A DNA stretch of 11,178 nt from a virus. Lineage: Duplodnaviria; Heunggongvirae; Uroviricota; Caudoviricetes. A program made the position numbers and the translations under genes. Below are positions 790 through 9,906 of this stretch, one piece after another. The stretch lies in IMG/VR virus record IMGVR_UViG_2671180710_000027; one strand, 5' to 3'. Below the pieces are notes generated by a model that was not told the origin of the DNA, did no database searches, and saw only the letters and a program-made list of their open reading frames with translations. Numbering within the stretch: position 1 is the first letter of the stretch; each line of letters opens with the position of its first letter.

Positions 790-1016
790 GTGAAGGCTGA
801 AAAGTAAGAATTAGTGTTACGAGTTACTCAATTGAATCTGAATGTTTAGTATGTGCGTTAATTGCTTTTATTATGCGGTTCTTTGGGTTGGGTTAATTTG
901 TATATGTACACGCGTATGTACACATTTTTCGTGAGTGCTCAATAAAACGGGATACGAAAGCCGTTTTTATGTGGCTTTAAAGTGGGTTTAGAAATGGCGC
1001 AATTGTGCTTTTGGCG

Positions 1017-1098
1017 TGCTGGTGGCGGGGGTCGAACCCGCATACATGATCAGCCTGTACAGGCTGGCACCGACTCTACCCGTTGAGCGTACACCAGC
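1017..1098 (-). other. tRNA-like sequence (degenerate; probable attachment-site relic)
   Basis: Minus-strand read gives a perfect 7-bp acceptor stem (GCTGGTG / CACCAGC), a perfect T-arm (GCGGG-TTCGACC-CCCGC) and a D-arm resembling GCTCAGTTGGTAGAGC. The anticodon region is a 5-bp stem with a 6-nt loop inside the palindrome AGCCTGTACAGGCT, spacers are oversized, and no CCA is encoded. Confidence 0.5.
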
Positions 1099-1120
1099 AA
1101 AAAAGCGATGAGGTTGTTGG

Positions 1121-1206
1121 CTGCTGGTGGTGGGGGTCGAACCCACATAAACATATGGCCCGTTAGGGTTTATGCCGCTTTACCGATTAAGAGTACACCA
1201 TACAGC
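1121..1206 (-). other. Second, more degenerate tRNA-like sequence
   Basis: Shares the 24-bp 3' terminus with the first copy (plus strand 1017-1040 versus 1122-1145, one mismatch) and a T-arm GTGGG-TTCGACC-CCCAC. The 5' acceptor strand is disrupted (GCTG-TAT-GGTG) and the middle is AT-rich and diverged. Confidence 0.4.
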
Positions 1207-1280
1207 CAGGCAAAATAGTAATTATGCGTTATGCGCGGGTAAAGTCCGTTTTGTCTGGTAGCACCAGATGAACGGGTATC

Positions 1281-1350
1281 ATTATTTCACCTGATTTCAC
1301 GTGATTTCGCTTAATTTCACAAAAATCACCGTCTTTCACCTTCTTTCACA
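1281..1350. repeat. Seven direct repeats of (A/T)TTTCAC phased at exactly 10 bp
   Basis: TTTCAC-like hexamers start at 1285, 1295, 1305, 1315, 1325, 1334 and 1344. The array lies about 80 bp inside the tRNA-like relics. Confidence 0.7.
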
Positions 1351-1480
1351 AAAAACAAATTATCATTAAAGCGCCTTTCGCTCTCTGATGCGTTTTGGTG
1401 TTTTGTGGTGTCTGTGATGCCCTGAAAGGGGATTTTTGCGATAGCGGCGCAAATATAACGGTTGCTGCTGGTATCTGTGG

Positions 1481-1888
1481 TTAGTCTTGCGTGATTTTAT
1501 TGGCGTGCTTCTTTCTAAGCCGCCGAATGATATCGTAAATATGGGTCTCGGATATCGCGTACTCTTTACGTAATGCCTGCAATTTTTCGCCGTTATCCCA
1601 CCTGTAGTAAATCTCGTATTCGCGCAATGCTGCGAAAAGTGATCTGCCTGTTGGAAGGTAAAGACTCCGCCCACCAGCATAGAAGGCGATTGCAGCAACA
1701 ACCCGCTTTGCGATTCTGAAAGCGTCTGCCTCCTCCATGCCATTACGGGTAAGTTCTGCCACTGAATGCGACACGATATCAGCAAGCGAATCACACCATG
1801 CATCACCTGGTTTATCTCCGCCGTCTATGTCATTCATGAATTTAAGCCGCTCGATGTCTTTTGGTACGTGATGGGTTTGCTCGTTCAT
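1481..1888 (-). CDS. Mor-family transcriptional activator
   Basis: 135-aa ORF. The C-terminal half (YLPTGRSLFAALREYEIYYRWDNGEKLQALRKEYAISETHIYDIIRRLRK) parallels phage Mu Mor (YIPRGQALDSLIRDLRIWNDFNGRNVSELTTRYGVTFNTVYKAIRRMRR, recalled). AAGAGG lies 7 nt upstream of the ATG at 1886-1888. Confidence 0.8.
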   Translation of the reverse strand: MNEQTHHVPKDIERLKFMNDIDGGDKPGDAWCDSLADIVSHSVAELTRNGMEEADAFRIAKRVVAAIAFYAGGRSLYLPTGRSLFAALREYEIYYRWDNGEKLQALRKEYAISETHIYDIIRRLRKKHANKITQD

Positions 1889-1977
1889 CCGGTAGCCTCT
1901 TGTGTTGGTGTATCTGGTCCTACCAGTTTAATTTAACGTCGCGATAAAACGATATACACGCACACATATCAGAAAGG

Positions 1978-2274
1978 CTAACCGACTGTTCCGGCTCTGT
2001 GCTTATTTCTGGTAGCTACGCCAGATTTTTTACATCTCCCTCCTATCCCCATTTCTGCGTAAGTGCGGTTTACTGCTTTCCTCAGGTCTGCGTAGTTCTC
2101 CTCTGGCGGCTCCGGTGGCCTCTGTGCCTTCCCGTAACACTCTGCCCTGCGCATTGCCACCCGTTCGCGTTCCCTGTCAGTCTCCACCAGCATCATCACT
2201 TCGGCCCATCGCGCCGCCGCTCTCCGGTAAAAGCCTTTCGACTCCAGTTCTTCCGCTATGCGGTCATGTACCAT
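1978..2274 (-). CDS. PerC-family transcriptional regulator (PerC/Pch-like)
   Basis: 98-aa ORF beginning MVHDRIAEELESKGFYRRAAARWAEVMMLV, recalled as the PerC family N-terminal signature. GAGGGGG lies 6 nt upstream of the ATG at 2272-2274. Confidence 0.65.
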   Translation of the reverse strand: MVHDRIAEELESKGFYRRAAARWAEVMMLVETDRERERVAMRRAECYGKAQRPPEPPEENYADLRKAVNRTYAEMGIGGRCKKSGVATRNKHRAGTVG

Positions 2275-2285
2275 CGTTCACCCCC

Positions 2286-2540
2286 TCAGAACGGAATATT
2301 GTCACCGCAGGGGTCATAACTTCCCGCTGGTGGCTGATTGCTCTGTGTGCCTGTGGTACTGCGTCTGCTCCCGCCTGGACGCGTCGCCCGTGCACTGATT
2401 ATGCTGTCCGCTATGACCTGATAACCCTGCCGCGTTTCCCCGTTCTGTCCGGTCCACTGGCTTACCTGCATCGTGCCGGATACGCTGATTACGTTGCCTT
2501 TCTCATATCCTGCCAGTCGGTCGGCCTGTCTGAAAAACAC
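2286..2540 (-). pseudogene. 5'-truncated single-stranded DNA-binding protein (ssb remnant retaining C-terminal tail)
   Basis: The 84-aa ORF aligns to the C-terminal half of SSB (SQWTGQNGETRQGYQV against RKWTDQSGQDRYTTEV) and ends ...GDNIPF, like the SSB DDDIPF tip. The frame opens with GTG at 2538-2540 directly after an in-frame stop at 2547-2549. No SSB N-terminal OB-fold sequence was found in any frame upstream. Confidence 0.6.
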
Positions 2541-2865
2541 GCTTTCTTAAACAATGCCTAAAAGCCGATTTTATGGTGCTTTGAAACGGTTTTTAAAATG
2601 GCGCTCGTGGTGTACTCTCTGGCATTCAATGGCGCTCTGTGATGTGGCTGGTGGTATGTGGCCGCCATGCATAATGGGGCTGATTTTGTTCATGGCCCGG
2701 CAATGGGTGAGCATTTTTTACCATATTCAGGGTAACAATGGGCGAAAAAGTTCATTTCTGGCATGGCCTGAAATTCCATGCAGCCCGCGCCGCGTGTGCT
2801 CTTGCCGGGGAAAACGTCGCGGAATAATGACCGCACCCCACCTTATGGCGGTGCAGTCCCACGAA

Positions 2866-2934
2866 ATCCCGGTTATTTCCGTTTATTCCCGGATTAATCC
2901 CGCCTTTTCCCGCATTCTCCCGGCTGTTCCCGGA
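2866..2934. repeat. Seven direct repeats of TCCCG(G/C) phased at 10-11 bp
   Basis: TCCCG-type units at 2867, 2877 (degenerate TTCCG), 2887, 2898, 2908, 2918 and 2928, in a non-coding gap. Confidence 0.7.
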
Positions 2935-2956
2935 ATTAATCGCCGGGGTGTGGTGG

Positions 2957-3247
2957 TTATCTGGTGTGGTCGTAGTTCTGCCGTAGTCGTTCACCCTCAG
3001 CGCAATGACGCGGTTTTTTAACGCCGCTGGTAGCACAATGCGGGCAGGTCATGACGTGGCTGATATACGCATCACGGGCAGCCAGCCACGCCGCAGACGG
3101 GGCGCACATATCCGCCAGCGTCTGGCCGTTGCTGGTGGTGTTGTCTTCCGGCCATGTTTCGGACTGGTGCGCTTCCTGTAAATCCGGTGCAGGTAATGCC
3201 CGGATAAACTCACACAATGCATCCGGCAGGCTGAATAACTTATGCAT
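2957..3247 (-). CDS. Hypothetical small protein with Cys/His cluster (possible mosaic ORF)
   Basis: 96-aa ORF with ATG at 3245-3247 and no clear ribosome-binding site. Contains CPHC...HC. It carries an in-frame 34-bp segment (3101-3134) nearly identical to part of the helicase gene (4481-4514). Confidence 0.35.
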   Translation of the reverse strand: MHKLFSLPDALCEFIRALPAPDLQEAHQSETWPEDNTTSNGQTLADMCAPSAAWLAARDAYISHVMTCPHCATSGVKKPRHCAEGERLRQNYDHTR

Positions 3248-3670
3248 AAATCTGATGTTCTGAATCGCTGAAAACGTGCGTTTTATGGTGTTTTTTCGTG
3301 ATTTCTGCGTGTTCTGATGTGCTCATTTCGCTGTATCCCTTGTGTGGCGCGGGCTGCGCGTGTGTTTCGGTGTTCTTTTTTGCCGCCAGAAAACGGTAAT
3401 CAGGCATATAAACACGGCTGTAAGCCGCGCCGCGTCTGGCTTCGCGTGATTTTGTGCGCTAAAAAGTGCATTTTTGCCCTTAAAAAGCGTTATTCGTGAT
3501 TCACTGGTAAATGCTCCACATGCCGCGCCATTGCTGGGCTTTTCGCTATTCTGTGTGGTTTTGCTGTTTAACCCGTTTTGCACACTGAAATTGCCTTGCA
3601 TCCAGCGCCACGTAAGGGATTTCCGGGTTTTTATGGTGCGTTTTTTGCCGTGCGTAATATTGTGCAAGTT

Positions 3671-3913
3671 GGTGGGACTGGTGGGAACTGTGGGAACCGC
3701 CTAGAACCACGCGGCTTTCAGTGGTTCCCACCAGTTCCCACGGTGGCTTTTTGTGGGAACCGTGGCGGTTATTTTTTGTTCTCTGTGGTTCCCACCAGTT
3801 CCCGCAGAGTTCCCACTCAAAAACGAACAATAATCATACTGGTGATTTTATTATTTACTGATTTATATATGTTTTATTTTTACGGTTCCCACAGTTCCCA
3901 CCAGTCCCACCAC
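3671..3913. repeat. Iteron cluster with AT-rich core: candidate origin of replication (P4 ori/crr-like)
   Basis: About 11 copies of the octamer GTGGGAAC / GTTCCCAC in both orientations (3671-3698, 3724-3741, 3752-3761, 3789-3816, 3885-3910). They flank an AT-rich stretch at 3817-3884 and lie immediately downstream of the helicase gene. Confidence 0.65.
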
Positions 3914-3946
3914 TTTTTCAGTTTTTAAAAACGCAATTTTTGTTAA

Positions 3947-5785
3947 TTATTCATCAATTGCGAATAACAATGCATTCTGGTCGATGGCGTAAACGCGGTG
4001 TTTTTCCCCGTTAACGGAAACGCGTTTTGTGTATCGGCGTTTCCCGTCCGTGTCGCGGTCAACAATCGCGCCAGCATCATCAAGACTGGCCGCTATGCGT
4101 TTCAGGTCGTAGCCGCTGGCCGCCTCACATAGTGCTTCCGGTAAAAACCAGTAAACCCGGTCGCCGTTGCTCCCCGGTCGCCACCATCCGGCGCGGTTGC
4201 TTACTGGTTCGCTGTATGTGTTGCCCCCTTCAAAGCGTGAGGCATGGCGGGCGATAAACCCGGCGACGGCCCGGAGTATTTTCACGTCCTCCGATTGCCC
4301 CCGGCCACGATAGTCCGACCACGCAGCAAACATCGCTTTCACCGCCTCCAGTGCTTCGCCCTGTTTCCACGGCAGAATCCCGGCAGTTATCGCCATTTCA
4401 CCGGCCAGTGCGCACAGTGTGAAACGCGCGGCGGCGCGCGCCTCCTGCCCGGTGCTTACGGGGAATTGTTCGCGCAGTATGGCGTACATATCCGCCAGCG
4501 TCTGGCCGTTGCTGTCGGTGCTGGTGGTGTCACTTTCATTGCGGGAAATCAGCCAGCGCACAAACTCCGGCCCGGCGTGGCCGTAATGGGTGGCCGCATT
4601 ACCGCGCAGCGTTTCGGCAAATTTCCGGCCTGCTCCACGGCGTTCTGTGTCGTTGTCGGGGTTGTGGGGTAGTGCCATTCCGTGGAGGCAGTCAAACGCC
4701 CCGTAAAGCCGCTGTGCCGGAATATCCAGTAACCGCATTTCCTGCCCGGCCTTGATGCGCTGACCACCGCTTTCCATGTGTTTACCCACGGTCATTTCCC
4801 CTGTGGAAATAATCATGGTGCGCCATGTGTTGACCGGGCGGGCCATGCCGGACACCTTGCCACGCTGGCGGCCTGTTCCGTTGCCAAGCTGATAAATCAG
4901 CCCGCCAATATCTCTGGCCGGGGCTTCGCCAATTTCATCCAGTATCAGCGCGGTATCGTTCCGCATGGTCGCCAGCCCTTCAAGCCCGGTGCTGGTGGCG
5001 TTCCAGTTGCGTTTAAAGTTGCGGGGTTCTCCCCATACGCTACAGGCCACCAGCGCCCCCACGCTTTTCCCGCTGGAACTGTCGCCCATGAAATGAAATC
5101 CGCCGCTGTCCACATCAAGCAGCCACAGCAACGGCCCGGCGAGTGATGCACACACTGCCAGCATGGCTACCGGGTTTCCCCGGCATAATGCGGCCACGTT
5201 GTCGCGCCAGCCCTCCGGCGTTCCTGCGGTGGCGTACTCCTGTGAGCCTGCTTCTGTTGACTGAAACACCACATCACCATCACCGATAACCCCGCCCGGC
5301 ATGACAAACAGGGTCGGGGAGTGCCACCCGGTGGCCGTAGCCGCGAGCGCCCGTCGTTTTGGTGCTGACTCCATGATGTATTCGGTCAGTGCCTGCCGTT
5401 GTTTGTAGGGAATGGTAACGCCCATGCGCAGCAGCTCCTGTCGGAGTTCTCCGCCGTCTCCGGCGAGCATTTCCATCGGTGCGGCCCATTCCCGCCACTG
5501 GCCTGACGGCGTGAGAAAACGGAGTAATCGCCCGTAGTTTTCGTCTTTGCTGTCGCTGGTCATGGCGATAACCTCCAGCGGGGAACAGATAAACGTGTCC
5601 GTGTTGGTTGAGTCGCGCACGCCGTGCCAGTAAAGGCCGGGTTTCAGTATCTGGCCGCCGTCCACCTGTACATGCTGCGAATAAGTGGCGTAGCCCGGAC
5701 GTGCCGGGCTGACTTTGGGGTGTTTCTTGCGTGGTGGTTTTCGCTTCCCGGATGTGACCGGGGTTTTAGTGGTTGTCCGGGTCAT
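3947..5785 (-). CDS. Replicative helicase, SF3/P-loop NTPase (P4 alpha C-terminal-like, DUF927-type)
   Basis: 612-aa ORF with Walker A GDSSSGKS and Walker B LILDEIG. Its ATG at 5783-5785 overlaps the primase 3' end by 20 bp. Confidence 0.85.
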   Translation of the reverse strand: MTRTTTKTPVTSGKRKPPRKKHPKVSPARPGYATYSQHVQVDGGQILKPGLYWHGVRDSTNTDTFICSPLEVIAMTSDSKDENYGRLLRFLTPSGQWREWAAPMEMLAGDGGELRQELLRMGVTIPYKQRQALTEYIMESAPKRRALAATATGWHSPTLFVMPGGVIGDGDVVFQSTEAGSQEYATAGTPEGWRDNVAALCRGNPVAMLAVCASLAGPLLWLLDVDSGGFHFMGDSSSGKSVGALVACSVWGEPRNFKRNWNATSTGLEGLATMRNDTALILDEIGEAPARDIGGLIYQLGNGTGRQRGKVSGMARPVNTWRTMIISTGEMTVGKHMESGGQRIKAGQEMRLLDIPAQRLYGAFDCLHGMALPHNPDNDTERRGAGRKFAETLRGNAATHYGHAGPEFVRWLISRNESDTTSTDSNGQTLADMYAILREQFPVSTGQEARAAARFTLCALAGEMAITAGILPWKQGEALEAVKAMFAAWSDYRGRGQSEDVKILRAVAGFIARHASRFEGGNTYSEPVSNRAGWWRPGSNGDRVYWFLPEALCEAASGYDLKRIAASLDDAGAIVDRDTDGKRRYTKRVSVNGEKHRVYAIDQNALLFAIDE

Positions 5786-6809
5786 GCTCCATTTCCCATA
5801 GCATCAAATCGTTAAAGTCGGAAAGGTCTGGTGATGCACCGGGCGGCCATTCCGGGAATGTGACGTAACATCCGGCCAGCAATGCGGCTTCGTTGGCTGC
5901 TCTGGAACCGGGGTTGCCTTTTGATGCCCGGTCATCATCCCCGGCGATAACGAGAGATATGCGCGAGCCGTATCGTTCACGCAGCGCCATAGCCACATGT
6001 TTAAGGTTTCCCGCATTCATGGCACACACCACGGCCATGACGTTCCAGTACTGGAGAAGGGCGGCCCCGGTGGCCCACCCCTCACACACGTAAACGTCAT
6101 GTTCCGGCGCTTCCGGGGCCATCAGGTCAAAGCTCCCCATAACATGGAAAGCCCCCTGCACCTGACCATCACGGAGAAACATTTTTCGACCGTCCGGGCT
6201 GATAATCTGCACGTTCACCACTTCGCCGCATACGTTGTACAGCGGGACAAGCAAATCATTACCCGACTGATACAGATTGCCGGGCTGTAGCCGTTTTTTC
6301 ATGAGATAGGGATGAGAAGGGGTTGCCACCTCCGCCCGGCCAAGCAACTCAAAGGCCCGGCAGGCGGTCAGTTTCTGGCGCTGGTGGCGTTGTTGCTGCT
6401 CCCGCTGGCGGAGTCTGCCCGCCTCCTGTTCTGCGGCCTGTACCCGCACCCGTTGCGCCTCCCGTTGTTCGCGGGTCATTACATCAGGTTTGCCCAGTGC
6501 GGGCAGGCACAGCCCCAGCCTGTCCGCCACAATACGGGCGGCATCAGTCTGACGCACATTCCACAAATAAGCCCCCAGCGCCACAAGGTCGCCGCCGCTG
6601 TCCCCGGTGGCGAAGTCGTGCCAGCATCCGTCCACCAGCGAGACGAAAAAACTGCCCGCGTGACGGTCTGCACGTGTGGGGTTACGGCACACCCATTCAG
6701 TGGCCTGCCGTTTACCTTCGGGCAGCCATTCAGGAACAAGGATTTCCGCATGTTGTGCCGCCACTGCGGCAACGCTGCGGATTGCGTTAATCGTGGCTAT
6801 GTCACGCAT
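5766..6809 (-). CDS. TOPRIM-domain DNA primase (P4 alpha N-terminal-like)
   Basis: TOPRIM motifs VYVCEGWATG and LVIAGDDD. Preferred start is the ATG at 6807-6809 (GGGAGGG upstream, MRDIATINAIR...), not the TTG at 6885-6887 used by the ORF track. Confidence 0.85.
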   Translation of the reverse strand: MRDIATINAIRSVAAVAAQHAEILVPEWLPEGKRQATEWVCRNPTRADRHAGSFFVSLVDGCWHDFATGDSGGDLVALGAYLWNVRQTDAARIVADRLGLCLPALGKPDVMTREQREAQRVRVQAAEQEAGRLRQREQQQRHQRQKLTACRAFELLGRAEVATPSHPYLMKKRLQPGNLYQSGNDLLVPLYNVCGEVVNVQIISPDGRKMFLRDGQVQGAFHVMGSFDLMAPEAPEHDVYVCEGWATGAALLQYWNVMAVVCAMNAGNLKHVAMALRERYGSRISLVIAGDDDRASKGNPGSRAANEAALLAGCYVTFPEWPPGASPDLSDFNDLMLWEMEHDPDNH

Positions 6810-7405: not shown

Positions 7406-7862
7406 GGCGCGCCCCCTGACGAATACGGGCGACAAAAATCATATGCGCGTGCGGTAGCTGCGCGCGTGCTTCGCGTTCTGTTGCCGCCGTGACGGTAAAG
7501 AGCGAGGTTTGTTTTTCCTGGCACTGCATAAAGCGCCAGACAAAGTAAGGGCGTGCGAATACAGCCATGTGAAAGGCTCCTATGTTTGAGGTAAGGAGTC
7601 TCGCTACTACGCTGCTAAACGGGGTGGCGAGACGTAACGGGGTTAGCAGACTGGCAACATAGAAACCAGCGAGCGCAAAGGCTCCCCCGTCACGCCCCGC
7701 CATAATGCGGGTATGGGTAGGTTTACGGACACAAAAAAACCGCATATCGGAATGTAAGCGGCTGTCCGCTATGTTATTCAGGCTGCTAAACCCGGTCACC
7801 ATGTGGGTGACTCCGGCATCATACAGCCCGAAAGAAGAGGCGATCAACATGTTTTTAAGCAT
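7398..7862 (-). CDS. Ash/Icd-like family protein (long form 154 aa; possible short form 7398-7568)
   Basis: C-terminal 56 aa (MAVFARPYFVWRFMQ...HMIFVARIRQGARHA) is paralogous to the Icd-like protein upstream. The long start at 7860-7862 overlaps the upstream stop (ATGCTTAA). An internal ATG at 7566-7568 has GGAG 8 nt upstream, so the true start is ambiguous. Confidence 0.5.
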   Translation of the reverse strand: MLKNMLIASSFGLYDAGVTHMVTGFSSLNNIADSRLHSDMRFFCVRKPTHTRIMAGRDGGAFALAGFYVASLLTPLRLATPFSSVVARLLTSNIGAFHMAVFARPYFVWRFMQCQEKQTSLFTVTAATEREARAQLPHAHMIFVARIRQGARHA

Positions 7863-8052
7863 GGCTCACCCCCTGAGCCGGAACGCGGCCAGCAAAAAGC
7901 AACACAAAATCACGCGCCAGCATACGGCGGGCGGTTGTTTCGTCGGGTGCGTTGACGGATTCGCGGTGTGGGCGGTCGTTCAGATCGGAACGGCGAACGG
8001 CCAGAAAGTGAAAGGTAAATTCAGGGTGTAACGGGGTTGGGGTCGTAGCCAT
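7855..8052 (-). CDS. Host cell division inhibitor Icd-like small protein (65 aa)
   Basis: MATTPTPLHPEFTFHFLAVRRSD...ARRMLARDFVLLFAGRVP matches the recalled Icd-like pattern. The ATG at 8050-8052 has AGGAGG 8 nt upstream. The 201-aa ORF-track version adds a Pro/Gly/Arg-rich N-terminal extension that I consider non-coding. Confidence 0.6.
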   Translation of the reverse strand: MATTPTPLHPEFTFHFLAVRRSDLNDRPHRESVNAPDETTARRMLARDFVLLFAGRVPAQGVSHA

Positions 8053-8481
8053 TCTGGCAGCCTCCTTTTGCAAATTTAAGGAGTCACCGCCTGAGTTTCC
8101 ACGCTCATAAGGGGCGGTGACGCTGGCGGGGGTGGAAATACCGGCGCAAAAGGAAACCGGCCAGCCTTTCGGCTGCCCCACCAGCGCCACCATAGATACA
8201 GTGCGGGCCTTGCCGCTGTTCATGGTTGCGCGATGGCACGACACAAAAAAAGACGCTGGGCGCGTCTGTGTCGCCTTTTGCTCATTAAACGGGTTTCCAC
8301 GCCCGGCTGGTGGATTTACACCAGCCGGGGAAATATAACGCCCACCAGCGATGGCAGGCAAGCAATATTTGCGGTTGCCGCCCATTCTGTGGGGCGTGTG
8401 GTGGTTGTTTTGGGCGTGAGAACGCCCCGGCCCTGTTGCGGGCCTTTCTGGCATTTTCATGATTAAAATTCTCTGACGGGG

Positions 8482-8773: not shown

Positions 8774-8857
8774 ATTTTTATTGGTGTTTTCGGTTTCTTT
8801 AAAATGCTGGCATATGTATTAAAAAAACGCTTTTATGCTTTCAATTTCATTAAAAAA

Positions 8858-9811
8858 TTATCTTTTTGCTTTTGCGTTTCCGCCCAAAATTTTCCATTCA
8901 TTGGGTAAGCGTCTGGCATCAGATAATATTTTTGCTATTCGTCCCGCGTCAGGTGTTGGGGTGGGATTGCCATCCCAGAACAGATAACCGTGTTTCTCTA
9001 TGGCTTCGGCATGTGATTTAAGTGTCTTGCCAACATCTTTAGGGAAGTGATACGCCACGTACAGGGCAGCCGCGAGAACCTTTTCACGTTCCAGCGCGAA
9101 TCGCTCCACACCGCCGTGTATATCATGCTTTTCCTGATTCCTGTCATCTGTCGGTTGTTCTGTGCGCTGGTAGCCGGGCCTTTGTGCAAGTATTTTTTGC
9201 ATGACCATCATTTCTGAATCGGTAATGCGCAAATTCTTTTTTTCCGGGGCGTTTATCCGGCGTGAGCCGCCACGTGGTGTAAAGGTTGCTGTAACTTTGG
9301 ACAGTGAAGGGGTATCGGTGTACGGTTTTAATGTGAATGTGTCCTGTGCGTGAACGCGCGAGAACTCGGCGTAAGGTACAGTCCATAAGCCATACAGGAG
9401 AACATCCGATACAACCATAAGTTTCCCGTCATGTACCTGCGCGTCACTATGGTTGCTGTCAAAGTAGAACCCGGATTGTGAGTATTGATGGTAAACATTT
9501 CTCCAAATCAATATTGATTCAGGTTCGTTGTCATTGGGGAAAAGCCTGAGTTTCTCCCCTTCTTCCGGTTGTAGTAATTCAGGTGGGAAATAATCGTTTG
9601 TTGCTGGCGCTGAAATACTGGCAATGTTCCACGGCTTGGCCGGATATCCCCACTTGTCGTAATCCGTGTAGCTTTGGCGGTTTATGGAACTTTCCGGGCC
9701 GAAATCAAGTGCGATTTTTATTGTCCCTTTAGCCCATTCAGTCAGTATTTTTTTTTGAGTACACCCCAGTATGCTGGCGGCTGTATCAATAGGGTATGTG
9801 TTTTCATACAT
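8858..9811 (-). CDS. Hypothetical protein (317 aa), AT-rich cargo gene in the integrase-alpA slot
   Basis: Long uninterrupted ORF with ATG at 9809-9811. Composition is markedly more AT-rich than its neighbours. The N-terminus has an HTH-like stretch (IDTAASILGCTQKKILTEWAKG). No catalytic motif recognised. Confidence 0.6.
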   Translation of the reverse strand: MYENTYPIDTAASILGCTQKKILTEWAKGTIKIALDFGPESSINRQSYTDYDKWGYPAKPWNIASISAPATNDYFPPELLQPEEGEKLRLFPNDNEPESILIWRNVYHQYSQSGFYFDSNHSDAQVHDGKLMVVSDVLLYGLWTVPYAEFSRVHAQDTFTLKPYTDTPSLSKVTATFTPRGGSRRINAPEKKNLRITDSEMMVMQKILAQRPGYQRTEQPTDDRNQEKHDIHGGVERFALEREKVLAAALYVAYHFPKDVGKTLKSHAEAIEKHGYLFWDGNPTPTPDAGRIAKILSDARRLPNEWKILGGNAKAKR

Positions 9812-9906
9812 GGTTTACGTTACCTTTGACGCTACCTTAAAAATAAACCGGGGCAGGCGGTAAGGTTTCCCGCTTTTCGCGCCGTCGCGCTATCCCCGGT
9901 ATGTTT

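Follow-up and report, generated by a model that had tools for sequence, protein, structure and literature searches.

An iteron array 3' of a DUF927 helicase gene as the probable replication origin of a PICI-type island in Escherichia coli

We analysed an 11,178-nt stretch of DNA (hereafter the window), which spans nearly the whole of an approximately 10.7-kb chromosomal island between yicC and dinD in Escherichia coli. All island genes lie on the minus strand, in the order integrase, 317-aa hypothetical, AlpA-type HTH, two Ash/Icd-like ORFs, two small hypotheticals, toprim primase, DUF927 protein, a 699-bp gap, 96-aa hypothetical, ssb fragment, frameshifted perC and mor. This unidirectional int–alpA–pri/rep–ori layout, about 10–12 kb long and at a dedicated site, is that of Gram-negative phage-inducible chromosomal islands (PICIs). 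The gene order matches those of EcCICFT073, EcCI042, EcCIIHE3034, EcCI D i14 and EcCI224, and yicC–dinD is a catalogued PICI site, occupied by EcCIRM13514.

The gap sequence was 100% identical to that of E. coli 2012EL-2448, and the array and gap were found in single copy in 32 of 5426 complete E. coli genomes. Decay is evident at the accessory end (window 1978–2540), where the RefSeq annotation shows a frameshift in perC and only a C-terminal fragment of ssb. In strain C311, roughly 1000–3128 of the window is missing, and the gap, the putative origin and the replication genes are retained at 98% identity. No capsid gene, terminase gene (terS), cos site or pac site was identified in the window, and the P4-like capsid-size/late genes psu, sid and delta were absent from the PGAP annotation and from Pfam/PHROG scans of the window ORFs. 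Given the decayed accessory genes, the activity of the island as a satellite is uncertain, and the origin may be intact inside a defective element.

Several further features of the island were recorded. Rfam matched two C4 antisense RNAs, an isrK RNA and an int-alpA RNA on the minus strand (7620–7707, 8110–8197, 8246–8325 and 9835–9900), and 8011–8196 and 8239–8309 showed 72–79% identity to the P4 cI/seqA region. These matches indicate that the island has a P4-type RNA immunity region, which is apparently duplicated and lies inside the ORFs annotated as Ash/Icd-like. A tRNA-like gene on the minus strand near the dinD end (1017–1098) scored 35 bits with the Rfam tRNA model (cutoff 29) and was called tRNA-Tyr by PGAP; its acceptor and T arms are good, and its anticodon/variable part measures 26 nt versus 18 in the model. 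ARAGORN found no tRNA in the window, this segment included. GATC was strongly depleted in the window (6 sites versus 26 expected, sd 4.9), and none lies between 1645 and 7213, so that the putative origin and the replication genes carry no Dam sites. The published att core GAGCAGATTCAA of the PICI at yicC–dinD was absent from the window and occurred once, with one mismatch, beyond the int end; no direct repeat of at least 11 nt was common to both island ends. The 10-mer TATGTACACG was present near both ends (window about 903–923, and beyond the int end), and these copies may be integrase arm-type sites.

The features of the replication region are collected in Table 1.

Table 1. Coordinates of the replication genes, the iteron sets and the adjoining non-coding DNA in the window
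Feature	Position	Strand	Description
Conserved non-coding stretch, array to next gene	3248..3669	.	422 nt; 95–100% identical in 32 of 32 E. coli copies
Iteron set E	3672..3697	+	3 copies, inverted relative to set A
Iteron set D	3724..3741	-	2 copies, in the orientation of sets A and B
Single iteron C	3753..3760	+	Inverted relative to sets A and B
Iteron set B	3788..3816	-	GTGGGAAC, GCGGGAAC, GTGGGAAC; oriented as set A; positions conserved in the enterobacterial alignment
AT-rich stretch, putative DNA unwinding element	3817..3884	.	68 bp, 79% AT
Iteron set A, adjoins the helicase gene	3885..3910	-	3 co-oriented copies: GTGGGAC, GTGGGAAC, GTGGGAAC on the minus strand
Putative initiator-helicase, 612 aa	3947..5785	-	DUF927 plus C-terminal Cch-type HTH/winged-helix region
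Toprim primase, 373 aa	5766..6887	-	Pfam Toprim_3; PHROG DNA primase families; overlaps the helicase start

The octamer GTGGGAAC (other strand, GTTCCCAC) occurred nine times without mismatch, on both strands, and all nine copies lay within 3681–3901, against an expected count per window of 0.34 and a maximum of 3 in 200 dinucleotide-preserving shuffles. Across the whole window there was no exact copy outside 3681–3901 and no second iteron cluster, and one-mismatch matches outside the cluster stayed at chance level. Three degenerate copies accompany the exact ones: GCGGGAAC at 3798–3805 on the minus strand, which carries one mismatch, and two iterons short of one A (GTGGGAC at 3672–3678 and GTCCCAC at 3904–3910). 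The earlier note had counted about 11 copies in direct and inverted orientation; this was a fair estimate, since the total is 12, in both orientations. A full-text literature search for GTGGGAAC returned unrelated matches only, and the word was absent from the supplements of the PICI paper (PMC6092414).

Within each set the iterons are spaced by 9–11 bp, and the copy nearest the helicase gene lies 36 nt from its stop codon (3947–3949). Read along the minus strand, the array runs from three co-oriented copies (set A) through the AT-rich stretch to three copies in the same orientation (set B), one inverted copy (C), two direct copies (set D) and three inverted copies (set E). The division across the AT-rich stretch is asymmetric, with 3 copies on the helicase side and 9 on the far side, and the two sets that directly border it are co-oriented (>>> AT >>>). 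Inverted copies (3753–3760 and 3672–3697) are confined to the far side. The outermost triplets are mutually inverted, and together with their flanks (3670–3699 and 3883–3912) they form a perfect 30-nt inverted repeat.

The AT content of the bracketed stretch was set against 47% in the window as a whole. The least stable 40-nt duplex of the entire 11.2 kb was 3842–3881 and the least stable 60-nt duplex was 3822–3881; the nearest-neighbour dG there was -39.2, compared with a window mean of -58.5 (sd 4.8), so that stability fell about 4 sd below the mean. The results bore out the earlier description of a 68-bp AT-rich stretch bracketed by iterons and placed the least stable duplex of the window inside it. 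Ranked second for duplex instability in the window was 8774–8873, which separates the 317-aa ORF from the AlpA-type gene. This segment contained no copy of GTGGGAAC and probably represents the promoter region of the alpA operon.

The gap that holds the array (3248–3946) had been described as lacking any convincing ORF, and this part stood: no Pfam family matched any ORF in it, and 30 of the 32 E. coli genomes holding it have no annotated gene there. The accompanying claim that its ORFs are generated by the repeats did not hold for all of them, as only some overlap the repeats and mechanical ORFs at 3240–3667 fall outside. The 422-nt stretch beyond the array accompanied it in every one of the 32 E. 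coli copies. This stretch is A-rich on the transcribed strand, gave no Pfam match, no credible Rfam match and no sigma-70-like promoter, and had an unexceptional RNA fold (z = -0.67).

To characterise the helicase, we used profile searches and a structure model. DUF927 was matched with an E-value of 7e-83. HTH_56 was matched at residues 503–602 with an E-value of 3e-4 and 21 bits, under the curated Pfam cutoff of 26.2, and was detected in 6 of 24 helicase homologues (best E 3e-7). A profile built from the 24 homologues matched only two PDB entries, the Cch structure 5DGK (E 1e-28) and the SaPIbov1 Rep structure 8TCH (E 5e-28), and its alignment to Cch ran through the C-terminal region. The AlphaFold (AF2) model had a mean pLDDT of 71, with the C-terminal third mostly confident. 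When this model was submitted to Foldseek, Cch and SaPIbov1 Rep were again the only strong matches (E ~1e-16), with about 15% identity to SaPIbov1 Rep in the structural alignment. As judged by profile and predicted fold, the helicase is a homologue of SaPIbov1 Rep and SCCmec Cch in both sequence and fold, and a self-loading helicase with a C-terminal winged helix is predicted at the level of this homology. DUF927 matches in Gram-negative PICI 'primase' families have been mentioned in passing (PMC10111431).

Comparison with P4 alpha gave different results for the two replication proteins. The helicase showed no similarity to alpha (best E 0.35), whereas the toprim primase shared 35% identity with the alpha primase domain over 114 aa (E 5e-15). 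Both ORFs were intact and annotated at full length in the copies examined.

We then compared the region with related loci. A search of species-representative genomes returned 80 loci with helicase relatives 40–99% identical, out of a total of at least 496. In the 78 that were usable, we scanned the first 350 nt past the helicase stop for a 7-mer repeated at least five times. Such a 7-mer was found in 48 of the 78, compared with 27 of 1852 control tiles from the same loci (1.5%; Fisher p = 2e-55). The same scan also picked up the origin in each of six catalogued PICIs, together with P4 crr and the phiAH14b array. Arrays in the relatives start 15–60 nt after the stop, with a spacing of 9–11 nt and mixed orientations. 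Comparison with the iterons of related islands, which the earlier note had proposed as a check, was favourable, with arrays directly after the helicase stop in these 48 loci. Genes downstream of the array fell into 55 unrelated clusters among 75 loci, and the upstream ORF belonged to one primase family in 42 of the 48 loci where it was called, indicating that the array travels with the primase–helicase pair.

The repeated word differed between lineages. GTGGGAAC was the word in E. coli, E. albertii and Tenebrionibacter, and CCGGGAAC was that of Brenneria, with C/G-CGGGAAC at nearly every aligned copy. Pseudomonad words were CCGGGAACA, GAAGACA, GGGGACA and GGTGACA; CGTTACA, TGATACC and others were found elsewhere. 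In a four-way enterobacterial alignment, the iteron positions were conserved and the spacers drifted. The Brenneria helicase was 90% identical in the ATPase core and about 50% identical in residues 501–612, whereas that of Tenebrionibacter, which keeps the E. coli word, was 86% identical through the C-terminus. Iteron distance tracked helicase distance across the loci (Mantel r = 0.33, p <= 0.0005). Partial Mantel tests did not distinguish the C-terminal domain from the ATPase domain as the part of the helicase that co-varies with the iteron word, giving equally weak signals for the two (r ~0.10, p ~0.03 each); assignment of the DNA-binding domain therefore rests on homology. In Tenebrionibacter intestinalis a frameshift divides the homologous helicase gene into two ORFs (3992–4474 and 4326–5840 of its locus), and the iteron array is intact; the split gene is either a pseudogene or an assembly error.

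Sequence variation among close copies was also determined. Seven E. coli/E. albertii copies had 20 variable columns in 311. A single variable column fell inside the iterons, in a degenerate copy, against about 6 expected (binomial p = 0.007, seven variants). Set A was invariant among the seven variants apart from one change in its degenerate copy, the AT-rich core (3846–3882) was invariant in all seven, and the E. albertii copy retained every iteron site.

The counterpart of the AT-rich stretch was also AT-rich in the E. albertii, Tenebrionibacter and Brenneria loci. Of 48 wider relatives, 44 lacked AT enrichment in the spacer (median 55 nt) that separates the first iteron set from the second, most high-GC loci among them, so the melting site is not conserved family-wide. 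The idea of an AT-rich spacer common to the whole family was rejected on this basis, with enrichment in just 4 of the 48 loci, including three from enterobacteria. For several pseudomonads, the 40 nt richest in AT lay just past the last iterons, about 200–225 nt after the stop, and the melting site may differ between lineages.

Our analysis established how the array is built, that it is associated with the helicase gene in different lineages, that the helicase is homologous to SaPI Rep and Cch, and that the iterons are under constraint. The array lies immediately 3' of rep, as in PICIs and SaPIs, a placement common to the 78 related loci, and it comprises two iteron sets around an AT-rich region (3 copies, 68 bp at 79% AT, 9 copies). 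From this anatomy, together with homology and comparison, we consider that the array is probably the island's own Rep-dependent origin of the PICI/SaPI type, with a probability of about 0.83. The proposal that an iteron-built origin lies downstream of the helicase gene and is served by the helicase is supported by context, homology and the comparison of the 78 related loci.

Binding of the helicase to the iterons, melting and replication are proposed from homology. For binding and autonomous replication, indirect support comes from the concerted divergence of iteron word and helicase and from the constraint on the iterons. After induction and excision, the DUF927 helicase would bind the GTGGGAAC iterons through its C-terminal winged helix, as homology with SaPI Rep and Cch suggests, with neighbouring iterons presented one helical turn apart. 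Helicase oligomers would assemble on both sides of the 68-bp AT-rich stretch and melt it. The helicase would then load itself as the replicative helicase, the adjacent toprim primase would prime synthesis and the host polymerase would elongate.

Decay of the island raises the alternative that the array is a relic, a formerly functional origin that has lost replication. The truncated ssb, the frameshifted perC, the missing capsid and terminase genes and the presence of the element in just 32 of 5426 complete E. coli genomes are in keeping with such a history, but the primase and helicase ORFs remain intact and full length in the copies examined, polymorphisms avoid the iterons and the E. albertii copy has all the sites. 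We regard a relic as unlikely.

Another alternative is an operator or roadblock array without a role in replication, in which AlpA-like, Mor or PerC proteins, or the helicase as a repressor, would bind the sites and control read-through. We consider this quite unlikely. The downstream genes are unrelated among loci (55 clusters, 75 loci) while the array stays with the primase–helicase pair, and strain C311 has lost its downstream genes and kept the array; these observations weigh against such control even though the array stands between two co-directional gene blocks and the 422 nt past it are conserved and non-coding. No sigma-70-like promoter was found, and an origin would suit both the AT-rich segment of lowest duplex stability and the relationship of the helicase to self-loading initiators. 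Plasmid iteron arrays commonly autoregulate as well, and a secondary regulatory role beside origin function is possible for the array.

The array could also correspond to P4 crr and enhance replication in cis from a position 3' of the primase/helicase genes, acting in concert with a separate true origin elsewhere in the island. In P4, crr is made up of octamer iterons of both orientations and lies directly 3' of alpha. The primase of the island is similar to the primase domain of alpha, and the island has a P4-like RNA immunity region. All 9 exact copies nevertheless form one cluster, with chance-level matches elsewhere in a window that spans nearly all of the island; the cluster includes its own AT-rich melting region, and the helicase is unrelated to alpha. 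Moreover, EcCICFT073, which has a single array of like kind, replicates from that segment alone (PMC6092414). An enhancer with a distant origin is therefore very unlikely.

A packaging signal, that is, pac or cos-type terminase-binding repeats for hijacking a helper phage, is most improbable. In its favour, a satellite requires a site for packaging, the small subunit of terminase often binds repeats and no other cos/pac site was identified in the window. Against it, the array stays with the helicase gene in hosts ranging from Enterobacterales to Burkholderiales, which must have different helpers, and the iteron word diverges together with the helicase. Catalogued PICIs whose origins are proven have a like array at the same place. 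When the window was compared by blastn with P4 and with five PICI loci, the array was left unmatched, and so were the ends of the P4 record, the site of P4 cos.

Iteron plasmid origins carry DnaA boxes and IHF sites beside the iterons, and their WH1–WH2 Rep recruits host DnaB. An iteron-plasmid origin of the RepA, pi or TrfA type was rejected here, as neither a DnaA box nor an IHF consensus was present by the array (3670–3946) and the initiator itself is a helicase by homology. One DnaA-like word at 3576 was at chance level.

Returning to the probable Rep-dependent origin, this is an expected feature of such islands; the repeat word and the helicase type are not yet described for E. coli. For a satellite island that is rare in E. 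coli, at 32 of 5426 complete genomes, the analysis locates a replication origin, at the confidence given above, and a probable initiator. In addition, it indicates that SaPI/Cch-type helicases with lineage-specific iteron words are widespread beside toprim primases in Proteobacteria, with at least 496 loci in species-representative genomes. Cognate helicase/iteron pairs are ready for tests of origin specificity, for example the natural T-to-C switch between the iteron words of E. coli and Brenneria, and they are a possible source of mutually orthogonal small replicons. The current picture of satellite-island replication is unchanged.

A bolder reading, which we hold to be doubtful, is that the array is more than a simple origin and is also the first described origin of a large proteobacterial DUF927/Cch-type satellite replicon family. 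The first part of this reading is prompted by the asymmetric 3 + 9 design, the co-oriented sites at the melting region and the perfect 30-nt inverted repeat. Copy control might be exerted by the distal sites through titration or pairing (handcuffing) of the initiator, or else these sites might stop read-through out of the replication genes into those downstream until replication has fired. If this reading were true, the iteron word would have been re-coded lineage by lineage within the family, and Gram-negative PICIs would be linked to SaPI Rep by direct homology, beyond similar organisation.

Finally, we compared the array with known systems. In the P4 record, crr lies directly 3' of alpha and ori lies 4.5 kb away, both built of the octamer TGTTCACC. 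P4 ori and crr are both required in cis, and alpha is an iteron-binding initiator with Zn ribbon, Toprim, D5_N, DUF5906 and Pox_D5 domains. The island shares with P4 octamer iterons in both orientations, a homologous toprim primase domain and a CI/C4 RNA immunity region upstream. It differs from P4 in its helicase, which is not alpha-related; the domain sets differ, and only the separate toprim primase matches alpha. It also has one iteron cluster rather than two 4.5 kb apart, the word GTGGGAAC rather than the type I iteron TGTTCACC, and no psu, sid or delta seen in the island. The earlier comparison with P4 ori and crr accordingly holds in part: octamer iterons, a position like that of crr 3' of alpha and an alpha-like primase speak for it, and the unrelated helicase, the single cluster and the different word speak against it. 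The P4 analogy is a fair picture of the array's look, not of its family.

Fillol-Salom et al. (2018, PMC6092414) report that the origin of Gram-negative PICIs directly adjoins the 3' end of the initiator gene, and that the rep-ori segment of EcCICFT073 drives plasmid replication whereas a rep mutant plasmid does not replicate. In both the EcCICFT073 and the EcCIRM13514 origin, a pair of co-oriented iterons follows shortly after the stop and is separated by AT-rich DNA from a longer array of mixed orientation whose last set is inverted. The island resembles EcCICFT073 in its int-alpA-icd-...-rep-ori-hyp-ssb-perC layout and in how closely the array follows the rep stop (a few tens of bp), and it resembles Gram-negative PICI origins in having 7–8 bp iterons in both orientations, roughly one-turn spacing and the same order of sets. 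Unlike in EcCICFT073 (>> AT <), the iterons on the two borders of the AT-rich stretch here share one orientation. Among catalogued E. coli PICIs, those that we checked encode a D5_N/DUF5906/Pox_D5 Pri-Rep or an AAA_25 RepA-type helicase, whereas this island encodes a toprim primase and a DUF927 helicase, and its iteron word is GTGGGAAC in place of the TGTCTACC or TGTTCACC of catalogued PICI origins. The EcCIRM13514 (9060–9300 of its locus) and EcCI224 origins use TGTTCAC(C), the P4 type I iteron word, and the EcCIRM13514 Pri-Rep has D5_N/DUF5906/Pox_D5 domains as in P4 alpha, which suggests that these two islands and P4 share initiator specificity.

The Pseudomonas satellite phiAH14b has a similar arrangement: besides int and alpA it encodes a toprim primase as well as a DUF927 helicase (37% identical), after which comes a gap of 310 bp. 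This satellite has been experimentally induced and packaged, and the paper describes no origin (PMC4936722). In the gap after its helicase gene we found about 10 GGGGAAC(A) iterons in both orientations (9290–9530 of its locus). It differs from the array here in its iteron word and in a weaker AT-rich part.

SaPI Rep is a self-loading helicase whose C-terminal winged helix recognises iterons, and the SaPI origin consists of 6–12 short iterons directly after rep, around an AT-rich centre, with opposite orientations on either side of that centre (PMC9371898). Differences from the SaPIs are the Gram-negative host, 8-bp iterons versus 5–6 bp, the asymmetric 3 + 9 split and the co-oriented flanks. 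SCCmec Cch (PDB 5DGK) was the best match in sequence and fold, including the C-terminal region that carries the Cch HTH domain; it comes from a staphylococcal cassette chromosome, not a phage satellite, and the likeness here concerns the protein only. With SaPIbov1 (PDB 8TCH), the island shares a homologous helicase, a probable origin immediately 3' of rep and short iterons around an AT-rich centre.
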